57,403 nt of DNA, from the NCBI GenBank assembly GCA_964549685.1, contig CAZJVE010000007.1:1-57403 (forward strand). Reading direction: 5' to 3'. Shown here piece after piece: positions 4,853 through 29,300 of this stretch. Under the pieces are notes generated by a model, which made no database searches, was not told the DNA's origin, and saw only the letters and a program-made list of their open reading frames with translations. Source of the stretch: an uncultured archaeon (GTDB lineage: Archaea > Altiarchaeota > Altiarchaeia > IMC4 > QMZM01). Numbering within the stretch: position 1 is the stretch's first letter; each line of letters begins with the position of its first letter. Made by a program: the position numbers and the translations under genes.

Positions 4853-5941
4853 ATGGACGCGAAACAGGCATACAAACTAAGGAAGCTGGTGAATGAGCTT
4901 AAGAGCAAGCAGGGCAGGCATACGGAGCTTGTCTCAGTGTACATTCCGTCCGGATATAACATAAATAATGTCTTGAATCAGCTGGCGAACGAGCAGGGAA
5001 CAGCCTCCAATATCAAATCAAAATCCACCCGGAAGAACGTCACGGACGCCCTGGAAAGGGCAATCCAGAACCTCCGGCTCTTCAAGCAGACGCCTGCCAA
5101 CGGCCTTGCGCTCTTCTCCGGCAACGTATCGGAGAGGGAGGGCGTTCAGGACCTGCAGATTTGGAGCGTCGAACCCCAGGAGCCGATAAAGACCAGAATC
5201 TATCAGTGCGACCAGAAATTTGTTACCGAGCCATTGGAGGATTTGATAATTCCAAAGGACGTCTACGGCCTTATAGCAATAGACAATAAGACCGCAACCA
5301 TTGCAACCCTGAAGGGTGATAACTACAATGTCGTCAAAAAACTTACTTCCGGCTATTCAGGAAAGCACAGGGCGGGCGGGCAATCACAGAGGAGGTTCGA
5401 ACGGCTAATAAGGGAACAGTCCCATGAATTCAAGGTGAAGGTCGCGGAGAGAGCGACGAATACCCTATTGCCCAACGTAAAGAACCTAAAAGGCATAATA
5501 ATCGGTGGCCCCGCAGGCACGAAGGACGATTTTGTTGATGGCGATTACTTGCATCATGAGCTGAAAAAGAAGATTATTGCAGTAAAAGACATTACCTATA
5601 CCGACGAATCAGGTATACGGGAATTGATTGGTAAGTCTCAAGACGTCCTGGCCGAGGTACAGATGGTGCACCAGAAATCCCTTATGCAGAGGTTCATGAA
5701 GGGTCTGATACACGATGGCAACATAGCCTATGGCGACGATATCAAGAATGCCCTCGATGCAGGGGCAGTGGAAACACTCCTTATATCCGAGAACCTTCCC
5801 GAGGAGGAAATCGACTCCCTGTATGACGCTGCGAAGGCAACCAATGCAAATGTTGAGATAGTCCCTGACAATTTTGAGGAGGGTTTTCAGCTCTGGAACA
5901 CCTTTGGAGGCAAGGCAGCCCTGCTCAGGTTCAAGGTCTGA
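4853..5941 (+). CDS. prf1: Peptide chain release factor aRF1
   Basis: NIKS, YxCxxxF (YQCDQKF) and GGQ motifs. Confidence 0.97.
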   Translation: MDAKQAYKLRKLVNELKSKQGRHTELVSVYIPSGYNINNVLNQLANEQGTASNIKSKSTRKNVTDALERAIQNLRLFKQTPANGLALFSGNVSEREGVQDLQIWSVEPQEPIKTRIYQCDQKFVTEPLEDLIIPKDVYGLIAIDNKTATIATLKGDNYNVVKKLTSGYSGKHRAGGQSQRRFERLIREQSHEFKVKVAERATNTLLPNVKNLKGIIIGGPAGTKDDFVDGDYLHHELKKKIIAVKDITYTDESGIRELIGKSQDVLAEVQMVHQKSLMQRFMKGLIHDGNIAYGDDIKNALDAGAVETLLISENLPEEEIDSLYDAAKATNANVEIVPDNFEEGFQLWNTFGGKAALLRFKV

Positions 5942-23991: not shown

Positions 23992-24005
23992 AATAATATG
24001 TAAAA

Positions 24006-24746
24006 ATGACGGTTGAAAGGATAGAAACAGGGATAGACGGCTTTGATGCTCTTATTGAGGGCGGTTTCCCAAGGAAATCATGTATTCTTCTTTCAGGAAT
24101 GCCCGGAACCGGAAAGACAATCTTCGGGCTCCAGTATCTCTGCCATGGTGCAAGGAACGGTGAAAAAGGCCTCTATGTGACCTTTGAGCAGAATATGGAC
24201 GACCTTATATCCAATGTCAGTGCATTTGAGTGGGACATCCCCGGTTTGATGGATACCGGCAATCTAGAATTACTCTCGATGGACATAGCGGAATTCAAGA
24301 TTGATGAGCTGGTGAAAAGGTTAAAAGACGGGGGCCATAAAAGGCTTGTTCTGGACTCCCTATCCACAATTCTTTCTCACCCCAAAATACTGGAGGAGGT
24401 TGACACATCCTACATGTTCGTCGACAAGCTGGACAGGCTGATTCCAACAATCACGGACATAAGCATCGCCACCCGCTTTATTGTATACAACACAGTCAAG
24501 AAGATAAAATCCCTGGACTGCACCACCATCATAACCTCAGAGCTTCTGATGGACTCAAAGAGCCTCAGCAGGGACACAATATCGGAATTCCTTGCTGACG
24601 GAGTAATAACTCTTCAGTATATAATGTCCGGTGTGGATACAGGCAGGAATCTCATGATAAGGAAGATAAGGAGCACCACCCACAGCGAGAACATCCACCC
24701 CATAGAGTTTAAAAAAGGAGTTGGCTTCAGCGTTCTTACACCCTAA
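24006..24746 (+). CDS. Single-domain KaiC/RAD55-family ATPase
   Basis: 'ETGIDGFD', Walker A GMPGTGKT, 'LVLDSL', 'EFLADGVI', 'IRKIRST'. Confidence 0.9.
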   Translation: MTVERIETGIDGFDALIEGGFPRKSCILLSGMPGTGKTIFGLQYLCHGARNGEKGLYVTFEQNMDDLISNVSAFEWDIPGLMDTGNLELLSMDIAEFKIDELVKRLKDGGHKRLVLDSLSTILSHPKILEEVDTSYMFVDKLDRLIPTITDISIATRFIVYNTVKKIKSLDCTTIITSELLMDSKSLSRDTISEFLADGVITLQYIMSGVDTGRNLMIRKIRSTTHSENIHPIEFKKGVGFSVLTP

Positions 24747-24787
24747 TTCTGGAATTTAATGATAGATTGCATATATTTCTACTACAC

Positions 24788-24860
24788 GCGTCCATAGTCT
24801 AGTCTGGTAGGACTTCGGCCTTCCAAGCCGATAACTCGGGTTCAAATCCCGATGGGCGCA
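24788..24860 (+). tRNA. tRNA-Gly (TCC)
   Basis: Acceptor GCGTCCA/TGGGCGC, anticodon arm TCGGC-CTTCCAA-GCCGA, T-loop TTCAAAT; no intron, no encoded CCA. Confidence 0.95.
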
Positions 24861-24896
24861 AACGGCTCACTAAAAGGCTAACAGAAACAGAATTCA

Positions 24897-25058
24897 CTAC
24901 TTGTCATTCTCATCAGAGGTGTGTTGTTCGCACTGTTTTGCATAGTCAGCAGCTATGACGATATTAAAGCAATTGCAGAAGTTTGCCGGCACCGAGTCCA
25001 GTTCGCTATGGTGTCTGCATTCGTTGCAACTCCTCATCACTCTGTTGAATATTCCCAT
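24897..25058 (-). CDS. 53-aa Cys/His-rich small protein
   Basis: Manual translation: MGIFNRVMRSCNECRHHSELDSVPANFCNCFNIVIAADYAKQCEQHTSDENDK*. Fills the gap between the two tRNAs. Confidence 0.55.
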   Translation of the reverse strand: MGIFNRVMRSCNECRHHSELDSVPANFCNCFNIVIAADYAKQCEQHTSDENDK

Positions 25059-25107
25059 TTTAAGGTCTATATTTTAATATCTCAGTCAAGATTAATATAT
25101 CCCTAGG

Positions 25108-25180
25108 AGCCCCGTAGGGTAGTGGACAATCCTGCAAGGCTTTGGACCTTGTGACGGAGGTTCGAATCCTCCCGGGGCTA
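25108..25180 (+). tRNA. tRNA-Gln (TTG)
   Basis: Acceptor AGCCCCG/CGGGGCT (A1-U72, typical of archaeal tRNA-Gln), anticodon arm CAAGG-CTTTGGA-CCTTG, T arm GGAGG-TTCGAAT-CCTCC. Confidence 0.95.
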
Positions 25181-25386
25181 AACTGTCACGTCAGTTTACA
25201 CCGAAACGGGTTTGTGGGGTTAATGGAAAACCTTTTGGTTTTTCATTTTTTGCAAATCTTCGATTTGCAAAATCGCTAACGCTCAACCCCACTTAACGCA
25301 TTGTGAATTCCCTAGCGAAAAGCAAGGGAATTCAAGGGAGGTGTCGGAACCGTAGGTTCTGACGTTCGAATCCTCCCGGGGCTAAA
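25160..25386 (+). repeat. 23-bp direct repeat of the tRNA-Gln 3' end (25160-25182 and 25364-25386)
   Basis: GTTCGAATCCTCCCGGGGCTAAA occurs twice, identical. Confidence 0.92.
25183..25363. mobile_element. 181-bp multi-hairpin non-coding insert (putative non-autonomous element or structured RNA)
   Basis: Five clear stems of 8-11 bp, lying between att-like repeats. The mobile-element call is inferred. Confidence 0.5.
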
Positions 25387-25391
25387 ATATT

Positions 25392-26357
25392 CTAACCCCT
25401 CGCTATGATGAATGCCAGATAGCAGATATAAAGGGTAACGAAGAGGAGCCCCTGCCACCTCTCCAATTTGTGTTTCTTTCCAACGAACATGAACAGGAAC
25501 AAAAGGACTGTTACGAAGACCAGGAATAAGATATCAATATTTATGAAGTAGGGGATTTTAATTGGGGTTATCAGGGACGTGACTCCAAGTATCCAGAATA
25601 CGTTGAATATGTTCGAGCCGACGATGTTGCCTACTGCCAGGTCAACGTCCTTCTTCATCACGGCGATAATGGAGGTTACAAGCTCCGGAAGAGAGGTTCC
25701 AAGAGCAACTATGGTCGCGGATATCAGGAACTGGCTCATTCCAAACTGCTCCGCAATAAAGACAGCACCCTCGACAACCCACCTCCCTCCAAGATACAGG
25801 CCTACTAATCCACAGGCCATCATCAAAGAGATTCTGGCATAGGTAAGTTCCTTAATCTCCAGCTTCTCGTCCTCAAGATACTTTTTATTCTTCCTTGCTG
25901 ATTCGATGGTGTAATAGAGGAATATCGTAAAGAAAAGCAGCAGGATTAATCCATCGCCTCTTGTCAATGAGAATACCCCTATCTGGTCTATGATGAAATC
26001 GTTGGAGACCACGAACAGGGCAATAACTGCAAGGAGGGAAAAGGGAATCTCCTTCCAGACCGTGGATTTCTTAAGTCTCAGGGGATAGAGAATGGCTGTC
26101 AGACCCAGAATCAGGAGAATGTTCGAGAGGTTGCTGCCTATTATGTTTCCGAACGTTATGTCCGTGGTGCCCTTAATGGCAGCAAATACATTCACAATCA
26201 ATTCTGGCGTGGAGGTTCCGAAGGCGACTATGGTTAGGCCTATCATGAGCGTGGGTACGCCCATTTTTTTGGCCATAGATGATGATGCGTCGACCAGAAA
26301 ATCGGCTCCTTTGAGCAGAAGAACGACCCCCGCGATGAATAGAATATATTCAATCAT
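25392..26357 (-). CDS. Ca2+/Na+ antiporter (YrbG/NCX family)
   Basis: Two alpha repeats: 'GTSTPE...GNIIGSN' and 'GTSLPE...GNIVGSN'. Confidence 0.95.
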   Translation of the reverse strand: MIEYILFIAGVVLLLKGADFLVDASSSMAKKMGVPTLMIGLTIVAFGTSTPELIVNVFAAIKGTTDITFGNIIGSNLSNILLILGLTAILYPLRLKKSTVWKEIPFSLLAVIALFVVSNDFIIDQIGVFSLTRGDGLILLLFFTIFLYYTIESARKNKKYLEDEKLEIKELTYARISLMMACGLVGLYLGGRWVVEGAVFIAEQFGMSQFLISATIVALGTSLPELVTSIIAVMKKDVDLAVGNIVGSNIFNVFWILGVTSLITPIKIPYFINIDILFLVFVTVLLFLFMFVGKKHKLERWQGLLFVTLYICYLAFIIARG

Positions 26358-26361
26358 GATA

Positions 26362-29300
26362 TTAAGTCAGCTTAACCCCTACAATCTGCGACAGCCCCTC
26401 CGTCATGGAGACGCCTATCACAGAATCGGCGTGCTTTATGACATAATCGTTATGGGTTATCAGCATAAACTGGGCTGCAGATTTCTTGAGCATCTCCGCA
26501 AACCTGAGGGAATTCTCCTTGTCGAGGGGGGCATCAAGCTCATCCACGATGTAGAAATCAGCAGGCCTGTACTGCTGTATCGCAAGCAAGAATGCCGAGC
26601 AAGTCACCACCTTCTCGCCCCCGGACATGGAGTCCATGTTGACAAGTCTCTTTCCCTTGGGTGAGGCGCTTATCAGCAAGCCAGAGTCTGATATCTCCCT
26701 TGGGTTGTTCAGTGTCAGGGTACCTTCCCCTCCTGACAAATCGTGATACATCCCCTCGAAGTTCTCCTTTATTACATTAAATGTCTCCATGAAGACCTCC
26801 CTCTTCCTTGCCTCGACCTTTTCCATGAACTCAAATATAGACTGCCTTTCCTCCTTGAGAGTGTCGAGCTTATTACTGACGTCCTCGAACTCCTCATTCA
26901 CCTTGTCGTAGGCCTCAATTGCTCTCATATTTACTGCCTCGAAGCCCTCCAGCTGCGCCTCAATATCGGCGACCTGCCTCTCCATCTGACTGACGCTGCC
27001 CTCCAGAACCTCAACATCAGTATAGATTTTGAATTCCAGCTCAAGGTCTGAGAGTTTGGTCTCGACCTTCGCCTTGTTTATCTGCATCTTGTTTAGTCTC
27101 TCACTGATTGCATTTATCTGATGTTCCGTCTCCCCTATACTCTCGCCCAGCTTGGTTATGCCATCCTCAATCTCTGCTCTTTTAGTCATTAACTTTTCCA
27201 CTCTTTCAGCAATATCGTTGTTCTCCTTTACCTTACTTTCCAGTTCCTTTTCAAGACTTGCAACGTCCTTTCTTTTCTGCTCCAGTTCCTCTGTGAGGGA
27301 ATCCATCTCTTGCTTTAGAGTAGAGGATTCGCTCTTGATTTCCTTAATCTGCTCCTCTATCAGTTGCTGTCTTTCCAGCAGCTTGTTCTTCTCTATTTCG
27401 ATGTCTCTCTTCTTATCCCTCAGCTCCTCCAGCTCACTGAGGTCGGCCTGCGGTGCCTTCTTCCCGACCTTTTTGAGTTCTTCCCCATAGGTTTCAATAT
27501 CCCTTTTTATTCTCTCTGTTTCGGAATCGCCATCTGATATCTCCTTTTTAAGATTCTTAATCTTGTTGTTGATTCCATTAATGTCCTTCTTTAATTCCGC
27601 TCTCTTCTCCTTTATCGAGTCCTTCTCCACCTTTATCCTTTCAACGTTGGTTCTTCCACTTCCTACTGGGGCTTCAAGGTTCGATAATCTGTCCTCGATT
27701 TTCCTTTTCCTGAGTTCGAGTTCCTGTCTCTCACCATCAAGTGCGAGTATCCTCTTTTCGATATCTCCTATATCATCCTCAAGGTCCTCCGTGTTTGAAA
27801 AAGAGAGAGAAATCTTTTTTGTATAACCTCCCGTCATGGCCCCAGAGAGCTCTACCAGGTCTCCATCAAGAGTGGCCATTCTCCATTTCCCTATCCCTAT
27901 GGACTTTGCACTCTCAAGATTGTTTACCAGGATGGTGTCCCTGAAGACATACTCAAATATGGGTTTGAATTTATCCTTCGTGTCTATGAAATCCCTTGCA
28001 AAGCCTATTGAACCCTTTGGAGCATTGCTCTTTATTATCGCTTTGACCTTATTTAGGGGGAGGAAGGTTGCCCTGCCTATTTTCCTGTCCCGGAGGTACT
28101 TTATGCATTTATTGGCGCTATCCTCATTATCGACCACTATATTCATCATCCTGCTTCCGGCAGCTATCTGCAGGGCGGTCTCATACCTCGAATCGGAAAC
28201 GGAGCCGAGCTGAAACACTGTTCCATGAATTCCTGGGATTACCTCCTTCAGCTTCATCACAGCACCCACGCCCCTCATAACTCCCCCGGAGCTCTTCTCC
28301 AGGGTCTTTACCTCCGTTTTCTTCTCTGTTAATTCCAGCCTGAGTGCATTGAGCGAATTCCCGACCTTCCTCTCCTTCTCCAGAATGGATGGAAGCTCCT
28401 TTTTTAGCCCTTCGAATTCGTCAAAGTTCTCTTTATTCTGTGTCAGCTTTTCATCTATGTTCCTCGCCAGGATTTTCTCATTCTCGAGGAGGCCGTTCAT
28501 ACTCTCTTCCAGTTCCTGCACCTCCTTCTCCAGAGAGGATATCTCCTCCAGACCCCTTTCCTTCAGACTCAGAATCGTGTCTCTCTTCGATTGCAGCTCA
28601 AATATTTTCGTCTTGAACCTGTCCAGCTTTCCATCAGCCTTGGAATCAACCACCTTCTTGGACTCCTTATTTATCTTCTTTGACAAGTCGGCAAGCTTCT
28701 TGTCGAATTCTTCAATGCCGTTACTTATCTCCTTGTTTTCTCTCCTGAATTCATTGACCTTTTTATCCCTTTCCGACGTCTCATTATCTGCCCTCTCAAG
28801 GTCCTGCTCAAGGCCCTCGACTCTGTCCTGCATTCTCAGGAGCTCGCCTTTCAGCTCGTAAACGCCACCCTGCCCCCTTTCCTCCTCCAGCTTCAGAATC
28901 TCGGAGTTTATATCCTTCAGCTCTCCGTTCTTCTCTGAGATGTCGTTCCTCACAGTTGATATTGAATTCTCACTCTCACCCTTTTCTTTCTCAAGCTCTT
29001 GAATCTCTTTCTCAACGTTCCCGAGCTTCTCCTTATGCCTGCCTATGAGTATGTGGAGAATGCTACCCTTATATTGCTCAAGGTCACTCTTAAACTTTTT
29101 GTACCTGAGTGCATCATCTCTTTCCTTCCCAAGTTGATTGAGGTAGCCCTGCTTTTCGCCCAGTATCAGCTGCGTATCAGAAATCCTCTTCTCGACCTTC
29201 TCCAGTTCCCTGATGGCCTTCTCCTTCTTCTTATCGTATTCTCCAATACCGCAGAGGTCATCGACAACTTTTCTCCTGTCCTTTGGATTCATGTCTATGA

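Follow-up and report, generated by a model that had tools for sequence, protein, structure and literature searches.

A gene-less, hairpin-ended cassette behind a duplicated tRNA-Gln 3′ end in an Altiarchaeota genome, probably mobile and targeted to tRNA-gene DNA

The stretch of DNA analysed here, referred to as the window, is 57,403 nt long and constitutes contig CAZJVE010000007.1 (assembly GCA_964549685.1) of an uncultured archaeon of the Altiarchaeota (Altiarchaeia; IMC4; QMZM01), whose genome of 1.17 Mb is distributed over 27 contigs and is 85 % complete. The window is contig C7 of this genome (G000:C7); throughout, G000 denotes the own genome, G001, G002 and so on its relatives, C a contig, L a fetched locus and X a sequencing run. 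Within the window an intact tRNA-Gln gene is followed by a gene-less insert made up largely of hairpins, and the insert in turn by a second copy of the 3′ end of the same tRNA (Table 1). An initial annotation had reported exact 23-mers at 25160–25182 and 25364–25386, and repeat search places these inside a direct repeat of 26 nt, identical at 25 positions with 25159/25363 as the sole mismatch; 181 nt lie between the exact 23-mers. The second 3′ end on its own does not give a tRNA call, and the flank beyond it is the flank located directly 3′ of tRNA-Gln in relative G001. Independent support comes from a Logan contig of run X5 (record 14), a run not flagged as the possible source, which matches 25040–25386 with 0 differences and bridges tRNA, insert and second copy; thus the duplication is no artefact of one assembly. 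A second Logan contig (run X4, record 3) covers 24881–25364, also with 0 differences.

The insert is predicted to be mostly paired, as had been proposed. Its fold has an energy of −73.5 kcal/mol (z = −7.1), which none of 200 shuffles equalled, and folding it together with the tRNA and the second copy gives z = −9.6. The inverted repeats 25214–25221/25285–25292, 25248–25258/25262–25272 and 25304–25316/25322–25334 are recovered by repeat search, the AATGGAAAACC/GGTTTTTCATT hairpin is paired in the predicted fold, and both the terminal GTA hairpin and the ACGTCAG/CTGACGT pair can be read in the sequence. Across 24000–26500 a search of all Rfam 15 families (E ≤ 10) returned the two tRNAs and otherwise chance-level matches (snoR12, 17.7 bits vs 39).

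Table 1. Features of the tRNA-Gln locus and its cassette, in window coordinates; the neighbouring genes are listed last
Feature	Position	Strand	Evidence
tRNA-Gln(UUG), intact, no encoded CCA	25108..25180	+	ARAGORN; Rfam RF00005, 62.5 bits (threshold 29)
Direct repeat, left copy: end of T-stem 5′ strand, T loop, acceptor 3′ strand, discriminator, AA; within the working tRNA	25157..25182	+	Repeat search
P1 hairpin (AACTG / CAGTT, 6-nt loop), directly 3′ of the tRNA	25181..25196	+	Sequence; 6/6 pairs covary
Conserved ACAC after P1	25198-25201	+	Sequence
P2 stem (GTGGGGTT / AACCCCAC) enclosing two copy-specific inner hairpins (~25223-25247, 25248-25272)	25214..25292	+	Repeats, fold; 7/7 pairs covary, 44 distinct copies
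Conserved unpaired motif TTAACGCATT (family consensus AACGCA, then TTATAAA-like run)	25293..25302	+	Alignment A4
P3 hairpin (GAATTCCC... / ...GGGAATTC), optional module	25304..25334	+	Repeat search
P4 module, right end of the cassette: AGGGAGGT + hairpin GTCGGAACC-GTA-GGTTCTGAC (25343-25363; one G.T pair)	25335..25363	+	Identical at 3 cassettes
Direct repeat, right copy: spare T-loop-to-3′-end fragment of tRNA-Gln	25361..25386	+	Repeat search; alignment with G001:C69
7-nt subterminal inverted repeat ACGTCAG (25188-25194) / CTGACGT (25359-25365), could close the cassette	25188..25365	+	Sequence
tRNA-Gly(UCC), upstream neighbour, context only	24788..24860	+	ARAGORN; Rfam RF00005, 68.9 bits
Convergent 321-aa ORF, ends 6 nt past the spare tRNA end	25392..26357	-	ORF list

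Sequence of the insert recurs elsewhere. A BLAST search of the own genome with its 181 nt places pieces of it at six more places (contigs C8, C2, C21, C5, C17 and C1), and the 29 nt P4 module is 100 % identical behind tRNA-Gln in the window, behind 5S rRNA (C8:38742–38770) and behind tRNA-Ser(GGA) (C2:72583–72611). Each of these P4 modules is followed by a copy of the 3′ end of the gene upstream, with identities of 25/26 (tRNA-Gln), 18/19 (5S rRNA) and 21/24 (tRNA-Ser). The layout of the family is modular. P1, of the GAACTG/CAGTTC type, starts 0–2 nt after the tRNA and is followed by ACAC, a short turn rich in C and G, P2 (GTGGGG/CCCCAC type, loop variable), the motif AACGCA with a TTATAAA-like run, and an optional P3 (GAATTCCCC/GGGGAATTC). 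The right end is P4, given as AGGGAGGT plus the hairpin TCGGAACC-GTA-GGTTCTGA in the three own-genome copies. The two inner hairpins of P2 are missing from the other own-genome copies, and without them the P1-P2 left end measures ~75 nt. The P3-type pattern occurs 16 times in the own genome, after several tRNAs, and is absent from the 5S and tRNA-Ser cassettes; the ACGTCAG/CTGACGT pair also flanks the 5S cassette and is absent from that at tRNA-Ser. In alignment A4 the AACGCA columns are conserved at A 41/43, A 36/43, C 31/44, G 42/44, C 42/44 and A 44/45.

The AACGCA and TTATAAA-like motif (25293–25302; A4 columns 204–223) resembles an archaeal BRE/TATA pair, and a similar GCATATATTT is present ~20 nt upstream of the 5′ end of the tRNA-Gly in the window, which raises the possibility that P1-P2 carries a promoter. 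For the tRNA-Gln copy a promoter role is unsupported, since the next gene is convergent and the cassette has nothing to drive on its downstream side.

A covariance model of P1-P2 (R1), built from eight own copies, was searched against the own genome and 60 relatives. It gave nine strong matches and one weak match in the own genome and, at E ≤ 0.01, matches in 31 of the 60 relatives, distributed over families f1 (13/21), f4 (1/1), f6 (1/1) and f7 (16/21), with no match in f2, f3 and f5 (0/4 genomes) and none in the remaining families of the class (f8 and f9, 0/12). At E ≤ 1e-4, 24 of the 61 genomes, the own included, hold a match. The P1-P2 left module is thus a family seen in one order of Altiarchaeota. 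All 13 pairs of P1 and P2 vary on both sides, and 97.5 % of 550 cells are paired among 45 aligned matches (44 distinct), a result reached by 0 of 500 shuffles and approached by no slid register; the alignment was fitted to the R1 model and favours structure, with the compensatory stems evident in the raw listing too. G.U occurs in only three cells, which is unusual for an RNA helix and expected of a DNA palindrome or single-stranded DNA (ssDNA) hairpin.

The smallest repeat-bounded units, of 75–93 nt, consist of P1-P2 alone (L035, L030, L039). The same ends can also enclose cargo genes: in L065 a 166-aa ORF lies between P1-P2 and P4, and in L080 an HNH gene lies upstream of P4 and a relic.

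Presence and absence of the cassette differ between close relatives, in both directions. On G001:C69, from the same genus and with flanks that are 84 % and 93 % identical, tRNA-Gln is directly joined to the downstream flank of the window with a single copy of the repeat; this is an exact empty site, of the kind the initial annotation had suggested looking for. G002 carries a different family member after tRNA-Gln. Conversely, G001 holds a ~330-bp cassette after tRNA-Val(GAC), running from P1 via several hairpins to P4, where the own genome has only 6 nt. This cassette has no flanking repeat, and has in common with that of the window an identical P4 and an inner hairpin of the TTGCAAATC type. 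As judged from these alleles, the cassette appears to be mobile, or to have been so very recently. The 204-bp excised circle that had also been suggested was sought in contigs of four runs (X4–X7) rather than in reads, and neither a circle junction nor an empty-site joint was found in these contigs, which cannot show rare variants. The single joint in the run contigs, 25219 to 25335, proved to be the 5S cassette cross-mapping.

Direct repeats flank 14 of 38 P1-P2 copies (29 from relatives, 9 own) when a repeat is counted at a score of at least 12 with its end within 11 nt of the P1 start. Their lengths are 13–30, 46, 73 and at least 80 nt, and 3 of the 14 extend into a tandem second copy. The repeated sequence is a tRNA 3′ end, a tRNA 5′ end (L020, L038) or the end of a protein gene (L030, L032, L035). 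At tRNA-Ser, at 5S (G000, and more decayed in G002) and at the tRNA-Gln of G046 it is the downstream copy of the repeat that is degenerate.

Both ends of the cassette are polar with respect to tRNA genes. In the own genome P1, oriented outward from the gene, adjoins five tRNA 3′ ends and five tRNA 5′ ends among 27 tRNAs (10/54 ends, against 2.4 % at random positions), and all 10 cases are of the GAAC...GTTC-ACAC type. Co-transcription with a tRNA cannot produce such symmetry about the gene, and it is mainly on this account that the hairpins are read as DNA signals. Among 80 metagenome loci of P4 (described below), 27 show tRNA-type sequence shortly downstream of the TCTGA end, and 3 show it shortly upstream of the GGAGGT end. 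A same-strand tRNA 5′ end is located 1–3 nt from P4 in 7/80 loci, an opposite-strand tRNA 3′ end 2–8 nt away in 10/80, and a same-strand T loop, in an intron or relic, within 45 nt in 8/80.

Within the order the P4 hairpin, with two mismatches or fewer allowed, is present at 23 sites in 10 of 49 genomes and five families, and a reversed-pattern control gave 0. These sites adjoin mutated or intact tRNA T-loop-to-3′-end relics or a 5S relic; others adjoin the 5′ end of the next tRNA (L059), or lie in a canonical tRNA-Arg intron (L060) or a tandem array (L066). The array, on G046:C29 (~4987–5222), has a spacerless period of 31 nt and at least four copies, is interrupted by an N run, and has a tRNA-Gln and its P1-P2 trailer on one side and a decayed tRNA-Gln 3′ end on the other. 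Additionally, another hairpin module, AACC-TTTTCTTTCTTT...AAAGAAAGAAAA with CGTTGAT or CGTTCAC after it, was noted at L059, L064, L072, L220 and L222 (families f4 and f7), as a tRNA trailer and also inside tRNA introns, including that of tRNA-Ala in the 16S–23S spacer.

The exact P4 pattern (22 specified bases) was found in more than 121 metagenome contigs, from which the 80 loci were analysed. Only 31 of the 80 hold an ORF with a tblastn match in the own genome, at a median identity of 42 %, and the source names of homologues of the L100-type protein, described below, include Aenigmatarchaeota and Bathyarchaeia; these few and distant matches, together with the homologue sources, place P4 well past the Altiarchaeota. 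The pattern scan of the genome collection gave a single locus (L048), and it is through the metagenome scan that the spread outside the phylum is seen. No viral contig carried the P4, P4 + AATC or P1-P2 pattern, and a viral origin of the modules was set aside on that count. The idea that P4 is a reverse-complemented 16S rRNA 3′ end was likewise dropped, as comparison by eye with four Altiarchaeota 16S ends showed little in common but the Shine–Dalgarno-like GGAGGT.

In the metagenomes P4 occurs in several settings. P4-only forms place an insert of ~50 nt between an intact tRNA and a relic (L105, L143), and in 6 of the 80 loci an intact tRNA lies 47–86 nt upstream of P4 with its 3′ end repeated after P4 over 14–26 nt. 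P4 is also found in introns at the canonical position, of tRNA-Ile in L101, L106, L113 and L169 as of tRNA-Arg in L060, and in frame inside long unrelated ORFs (L102, L147, L157). Read in frame, it encodes (K/M)GGIGT(V/E/A)GSD. In 11/80 loci a small ORF with a ribbon-helix-helix (RHH)-type N-terminus ends in or runs through P4 and continues into tRNA sequence; all five of these that were scanned match CcdA, PF07362 (Pfam). L100 holds an intact 351-aa ORF composed of an RHH region, P4, an antisense tRNA 3′ half and an archaeal phage-integrase domain (PF16795, E = 4e-9), which is the layout of an SSV-type integrase with attP inside the gene. In L109 a C-terminal integrase piece is antisense through a tRNA relic and the P4 reverse complement, with P4 preceding the relic as in the window, and in L169 and L101 a 447-aa PF00589 integrase starts with ATG-P4 within the tRNA-Ile intron and continues through the 3′ exon. 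The L100 family (P0001–P0120), with its RHH N-terminus and PF16795, comprises full-length proteins of ~330–405 aa and forms lacking the first quarter or so (77–83 % query coverage); tRNA sequence, read in one orientation or the other, is translated in their linkers, a split as expected of SSV-type integrases.

P4 nonetheless appears not to be an integral part of these integrases. The motif it encodes is present in 2 of 38 full-length L100 homologues (plus one near variant by eye) and in none of 82 shorter ones, among the best 120 of 281 matches, and neither PF16795 nor the L100 integrase family was found in the 49 genomes of the Altiarchaeota order. The presence of P4 in unrelated ORFs likewise argues against the idea that it is an integrase arm. 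P4 behaves as an insertion landing by tRNA-like DNA, including the att segment in integrase genes, and not as the fixed part of one recombinase.

Taken with one copy of the repeat, the insert is a unit of 204 bp, and this unit is probably a gene-less, mosaic, hairpin-ended mobile DNA cassette, moved in trans and targeting tRNA-gene DNA. The reading is based on family membership, the modules, the covariation, the presence/absence polymorphism and the polarity of both ends. The initial annotation had offered a tiny non-autonomous tRNA-targeting element mobilised in trans, and this proposal fits best, given the multiple copies, the empty site and tRNA-Val cassette of G001, and the lack of a recombinase gene in the copies. 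If events ran in the direction of gain, the cassette would have entered the 3′ part of the tRNA-Gln gene, leaving an intact tRNA-Gln on the left, and on the right a spare T-loop-to-3′-end fragment with the original downstream flank. The cassette is a mosaic, in which P1-P2 belongs to the family of one Altiarchaeota order, P4 (~30 nt) is a module seen beside tRNA sequence in many archaeal lineages, and P3 and the two inner hairpins are optional filler. An enzyme supplied in trans may recognise its hairpins as DNA, in the form of folded single strands or of palindromic duplex, and spare tRNA ends would decay over time.

Of the enzymes that might be responsible, a site-specific recombinase of the tyrosine type, working on a small circle that carries P4, the tRNA end and P1 is a possibility held with some reserve; a T-loop crossover of this kind explains the tRNA cases, and leaves the 5S case, the case with no repeat and the long protein-gene repeats unexplained. 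An unnamed hairpin- or ssDNA-specific nuclease or transposase, followed by repair, is given the same guarded weight. It would explain the polarity and the range of sites. Homology-anchored illegitimate recombination is given only a small chance.

Several findings weigh against a mobile cassette of this kind, starting with the lack of a candidate gene for the nuclease or transposase. No match to PF00589, Cas1 (PF01867) or Y1 transposase (PF01797) was found in the own genome, 85 % complete, and no search for serine recombinases was made. Integrases are present in 30 of 49 genomes of the order, though never on a contig with a P4 site. Likewise, a scan of 134 ORFs flanking Altiarchaeota copies gave 0 transposases or integrases, the kinds of gene that the initial annotation had suggested looking for beside matching hairpins; mobility-type matches among these ORFs are limited to the HNH gene of L080 and two Mrr-type nucleases. 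The flanking repeat ranges from none (tRNA-Val of G001) to at least 80 nt, a variability that neither a fixed staggered cut nor a single att core fits, and the run contigs yielded no junction, as described above. That P1-P2 is conserved, with covariation, in different families of the order might also reflect a function for the host.

The likeliest rival is that the locus is the decayed scar of a larger integrated element, brought in by the tyrosine integrase of a virus or plasmid (SSV-type or pNOB8-type) through a crossover in the T loop, the interior having since been deleted to leave 181 inert nt. T-loop integration classically yields a direct repeat extending from T loop to tRNA 3′ end, and the repeat at tRNA-Gln fits this. 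P4 lies beside a tRNA-derived att segment in integrase genes elsewhere (L100, L109, L169, L101), the order also has bigger inserts that end in P4 and contain ORFs (L065, L080), and Altiarchaeota do have ~400-aa integrases beside tRNA genes. The initial annotation had read the duplicated ends as attL and attR, and to the extent of a flanking tRNA 3′ repeat (25/26) and an empty site in G001 this stands. What does not fit is that an identical P4 and a similar P1-P2 occur, gene-less, at three targets here, with unrelated duplications (tRNA-Gln, tRNA-Ser, 5S rRNA), and at a fourth in a congener, with presence and absence in both directions; independent deletions would not converge so on the same ends. 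The ~50-nt P4-only cassettes of the metagenomes keep the same boundaries at various tRNAs. Additionally, no integrase was found in the own genome (85 % complete) or on the Altiarchaeota contigs with P4, the P4-coded motif and the L100 family are distributed as given above, and the integrase loci of the order that were looked at are tRNA-adjacent islands without P1-P2 or P4, save for a P4-like hairpin near tRNA-Lys (L096). In G001 the integrase starts ~70 nt past tRNA-His and has no overlap with that tRNA, and in the window no integrase ORF flanks the cassette. A scar is therefore regarded as unlikely.

Somewhat more unlikely is a structured non-coding RNA that shares its transcript with tRNA-Gln and is freed by RNase Z, with the second tRNA end as part of its fold or function. 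The insert does start right after the discriminator base on the tRNA strand, its fold z-scores are very negative, P1 and P2 covary strongly, the family is kept across four families of the order, and the conserved G.T position of P4 would be G.U on the tRNA strand. The initial annotation's idea of an RNA in the pre-tRNA trailer is nevertheless disfavoured. P1 is as frequent, in opposite orientation, at tRNA 5′ ends as at 3′ ends; P4 faces opposite-strand tRNA 3′ ends in at least 10/80 loci and runs in frame through long ORFs and integrase genes; and pairing in P1-P2 is almost exclusively Watson–Crick (G.U in 3/550 cells). Close relatives differ in presence at tRNA-Gln, copies are found after protein genes with long flanking repeats, and there is no Rfam match. 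A tRNA intron or split tRNA, in which the 5′ part would be spliced to the second 3′ end and the first 3′ end excised with the insert at a bulge-helix-bulge (BHB), is highly improbable. P4 does occupy canonical-position introns of tRNA-Arg and tRNA-Ile, and trailer-like hairpin modules are found in introns of relatives as well, but the first copy already completes a normal tRNA, and inspection showed no BHB pairing at either boundary. In the cassettes at tRNA-Ser and 5S the second copy carries mutations and so cannot replace the first, and the same-genus empty allele has a single copy, which is the gene. As to the P4-only tRNA-Ile intron of L113, a BHB was sought there too, and the fold gave a relaxed helix with 1-nt bulges (z = −1.8).

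The cassettes resemble several known systems, and each of these misses at least one defining feature. SSV-type integrases, with attP inside their own ORF, and tyrosine-integrase elements at tRNA genes are described in parts of PMC7253208 and PMC8371274. Like the latter, the cassettes are inserts flanked by a tRNA 3′ repeat that keep the tRNA intact and have an empty site in a relative, and P4 lies by the tRNA-derived att segment of some SSV-type genes from other archaeal phyla. Unlike them, they have no integrase found in or near any cassette or in the own genome (85 % complete), one near-identical pair of ends goes with three unrelated duplications including 5S rRNA, and repeats run from 0 to at least 80 nt. 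Among archaeal genomes, that of Ca. Altiarchaeum hamiconexum is reported to have the highest density of conserved MITEs (miniature transposable elements with inverted repeats), at 146 per Mb (PMC11602168, in part). The cassettes share with MITEs their short length, lack of genes, multiple copies and short subterminal inverted repeats, as well as a MITE-rich host lineage. They differ in lacking both clear terminal inverted repeats (only the 7-nt subterminal ones) and a target-site duplication of fixed length, in that their two ends are different modules also found singly, and in their strong polarity to tRNA-gene boundaries. The main-text passages of PMC11602168, supplements lying outside this scope, contain no description of the family.

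Palindrome-associated elements derived from IS200/IS605, with which TnpB-only elements are grouped here, resemble the cassettes in having subterminal hairpins at both ends and no terminal inverted repeats; they insert 3′ of a fixed tetra- or pentanucleotide without duplication. An ssDNA-type logic would suit the Watson–Crick-only covariation, and the own genome has four TnpB genes; the left flanks of the cassettes, however, have no common tetranucleotide, duplications are present, no Y1 transposase matches, and the TnpB right ends (GTAGTTNAC) differ from P4. The TnpB-type genes (PF07282) are located at C27:2512–3768, C25:453–1637, C9:13526–14890 and C9:19635–20771, and all of their downstream ends read GTAGTT(C/G/T)AC, the word GTT(C/G/T)AC of which also closes the P1 hairpin of the cassettes. 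A TnpB omega-RNA, as scaffold with the 3′ end of the neighbouring gene as guide, was considered and rejected on the difference between the right ends and P4, no TnpB being near any cassette. Repetitive extragenic palindromes (REP) and their mosaics (BIME) are built of palindromic units at gene ends; the cassettes are likewise mosaic, palindromic and extragenic at gene ends, but differ in their archaeal host, other sequence, lack of any RAYT-type gene found, polarity to both tRNA ends and occupancy of intron sites.

Ssn nucleases are bacterial GIY-YIG enzymes; their NTS/SRM hairpin repeats are present in many copies around genes and are bound as ssDNA by a small nuclease encoded elsewhere (PMC11893778, in part). 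By analogy, such hairpin repeats near genes may serve as a working model for the recognition of P1 and P4, though the motif differs, Ssn is bacterial, and duplication of tRNA ends is not reported for its repeats in the part of that account covered. In Caldiarchaeum subterraneum a tRNA gene is disrupted by a 1.8-kb mobile element encoding a recombinase (PMC3293823, in part). There too the element leaves behind part of a tRNA, and sequence is made intronic, as P4 is found at intron sites, T loops and gene ends, while the cassettes, at 50–330 bp, are far smaller and gene-less. The literature covered, outside subscription journals and supplements, contains no account of the P1-P2 or P4 modules and no match for the P4 core string. 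Two further mechanisms were discarded: a diversity-generating retroelement with template and variable repeat, as mismatches between repeat copies are not adenine-specific, and casposon or Cas1-type integration with its 14–15 bp duplication, as G000 has no PF01867 match and repeat length varies. The only reverse transcriptase in the own genome is the maturase of a group II intron, and nothing links it to the cassettes. It is split over contig ends (C19:14667–15173, L058; C20:13776–14634, L057) between cobalt-transporter-like membrane genes, and its overlapping translations make C19 and C20 neighbours.

Small gene-less elements that target tRNA genes and spare the gene are already known as integrase by-products. 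In the present cassettes the ends act as independent modules, strictly polar toward tRNA-gene boundaries, and P4 is common to distant archaeal lineages at places where tRNA genes tolerate extra sequence, namely the ends, the canonical intron site, and the T loop with a spare end. A bolder proposal, to be taken as tentative and on balance doubtful, is that P1/P4 cassettes are an undescribed class of gene-less mobile DNA that senses folded tRNA-gene DNA, is independent of integrases and crosses archaeal phyla. The targets recognised would then be the acceptor-stem base on either strand, the anticodon loop and the T loop. If this were true, cassettes at splice-competent sites would persist as tRNA introns and those at gene ends as leaders or trailers, T-loop cassettes would persist only with a duplicated 3′ end, and flexible protein linkers would allow in-frame persistence. 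On this view archaeal tRNA introns and orphan tRNA fragments, whose arrival is still termed an open question in a preprint (bioRxiv 10.64898/2026.10.13.758758), would have in the cassettes one source at the DNA level. A traceable P4 module with a signature of 26 nt would let that question be tested in metagenomes.

The cassettes also affect annotation, causing ARAGORN to miss or mis-call tRNAs and assemblies to break. In L031 (G024:C17) a 191-nt ‘intron’ called in tRNA-Ile is really a cassette with a duplicated 3′ end, and several intron-bearing tRNAs beside cassettes are missed, making the tRNA counts of these genomes unreliable; masking or annotation of cassettes is advised in Altiarchaeota genomes. 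In the window itself, the spacer between tRNA-Gly and tRNA-Gln (24861–25107) opens with AACGGCTCAC, a P1-like start whose hairpin is missing. The same spacer in relative G024 (L059) holds a complete cassette, its P4 ending 2 nt before tRNA-Gln.

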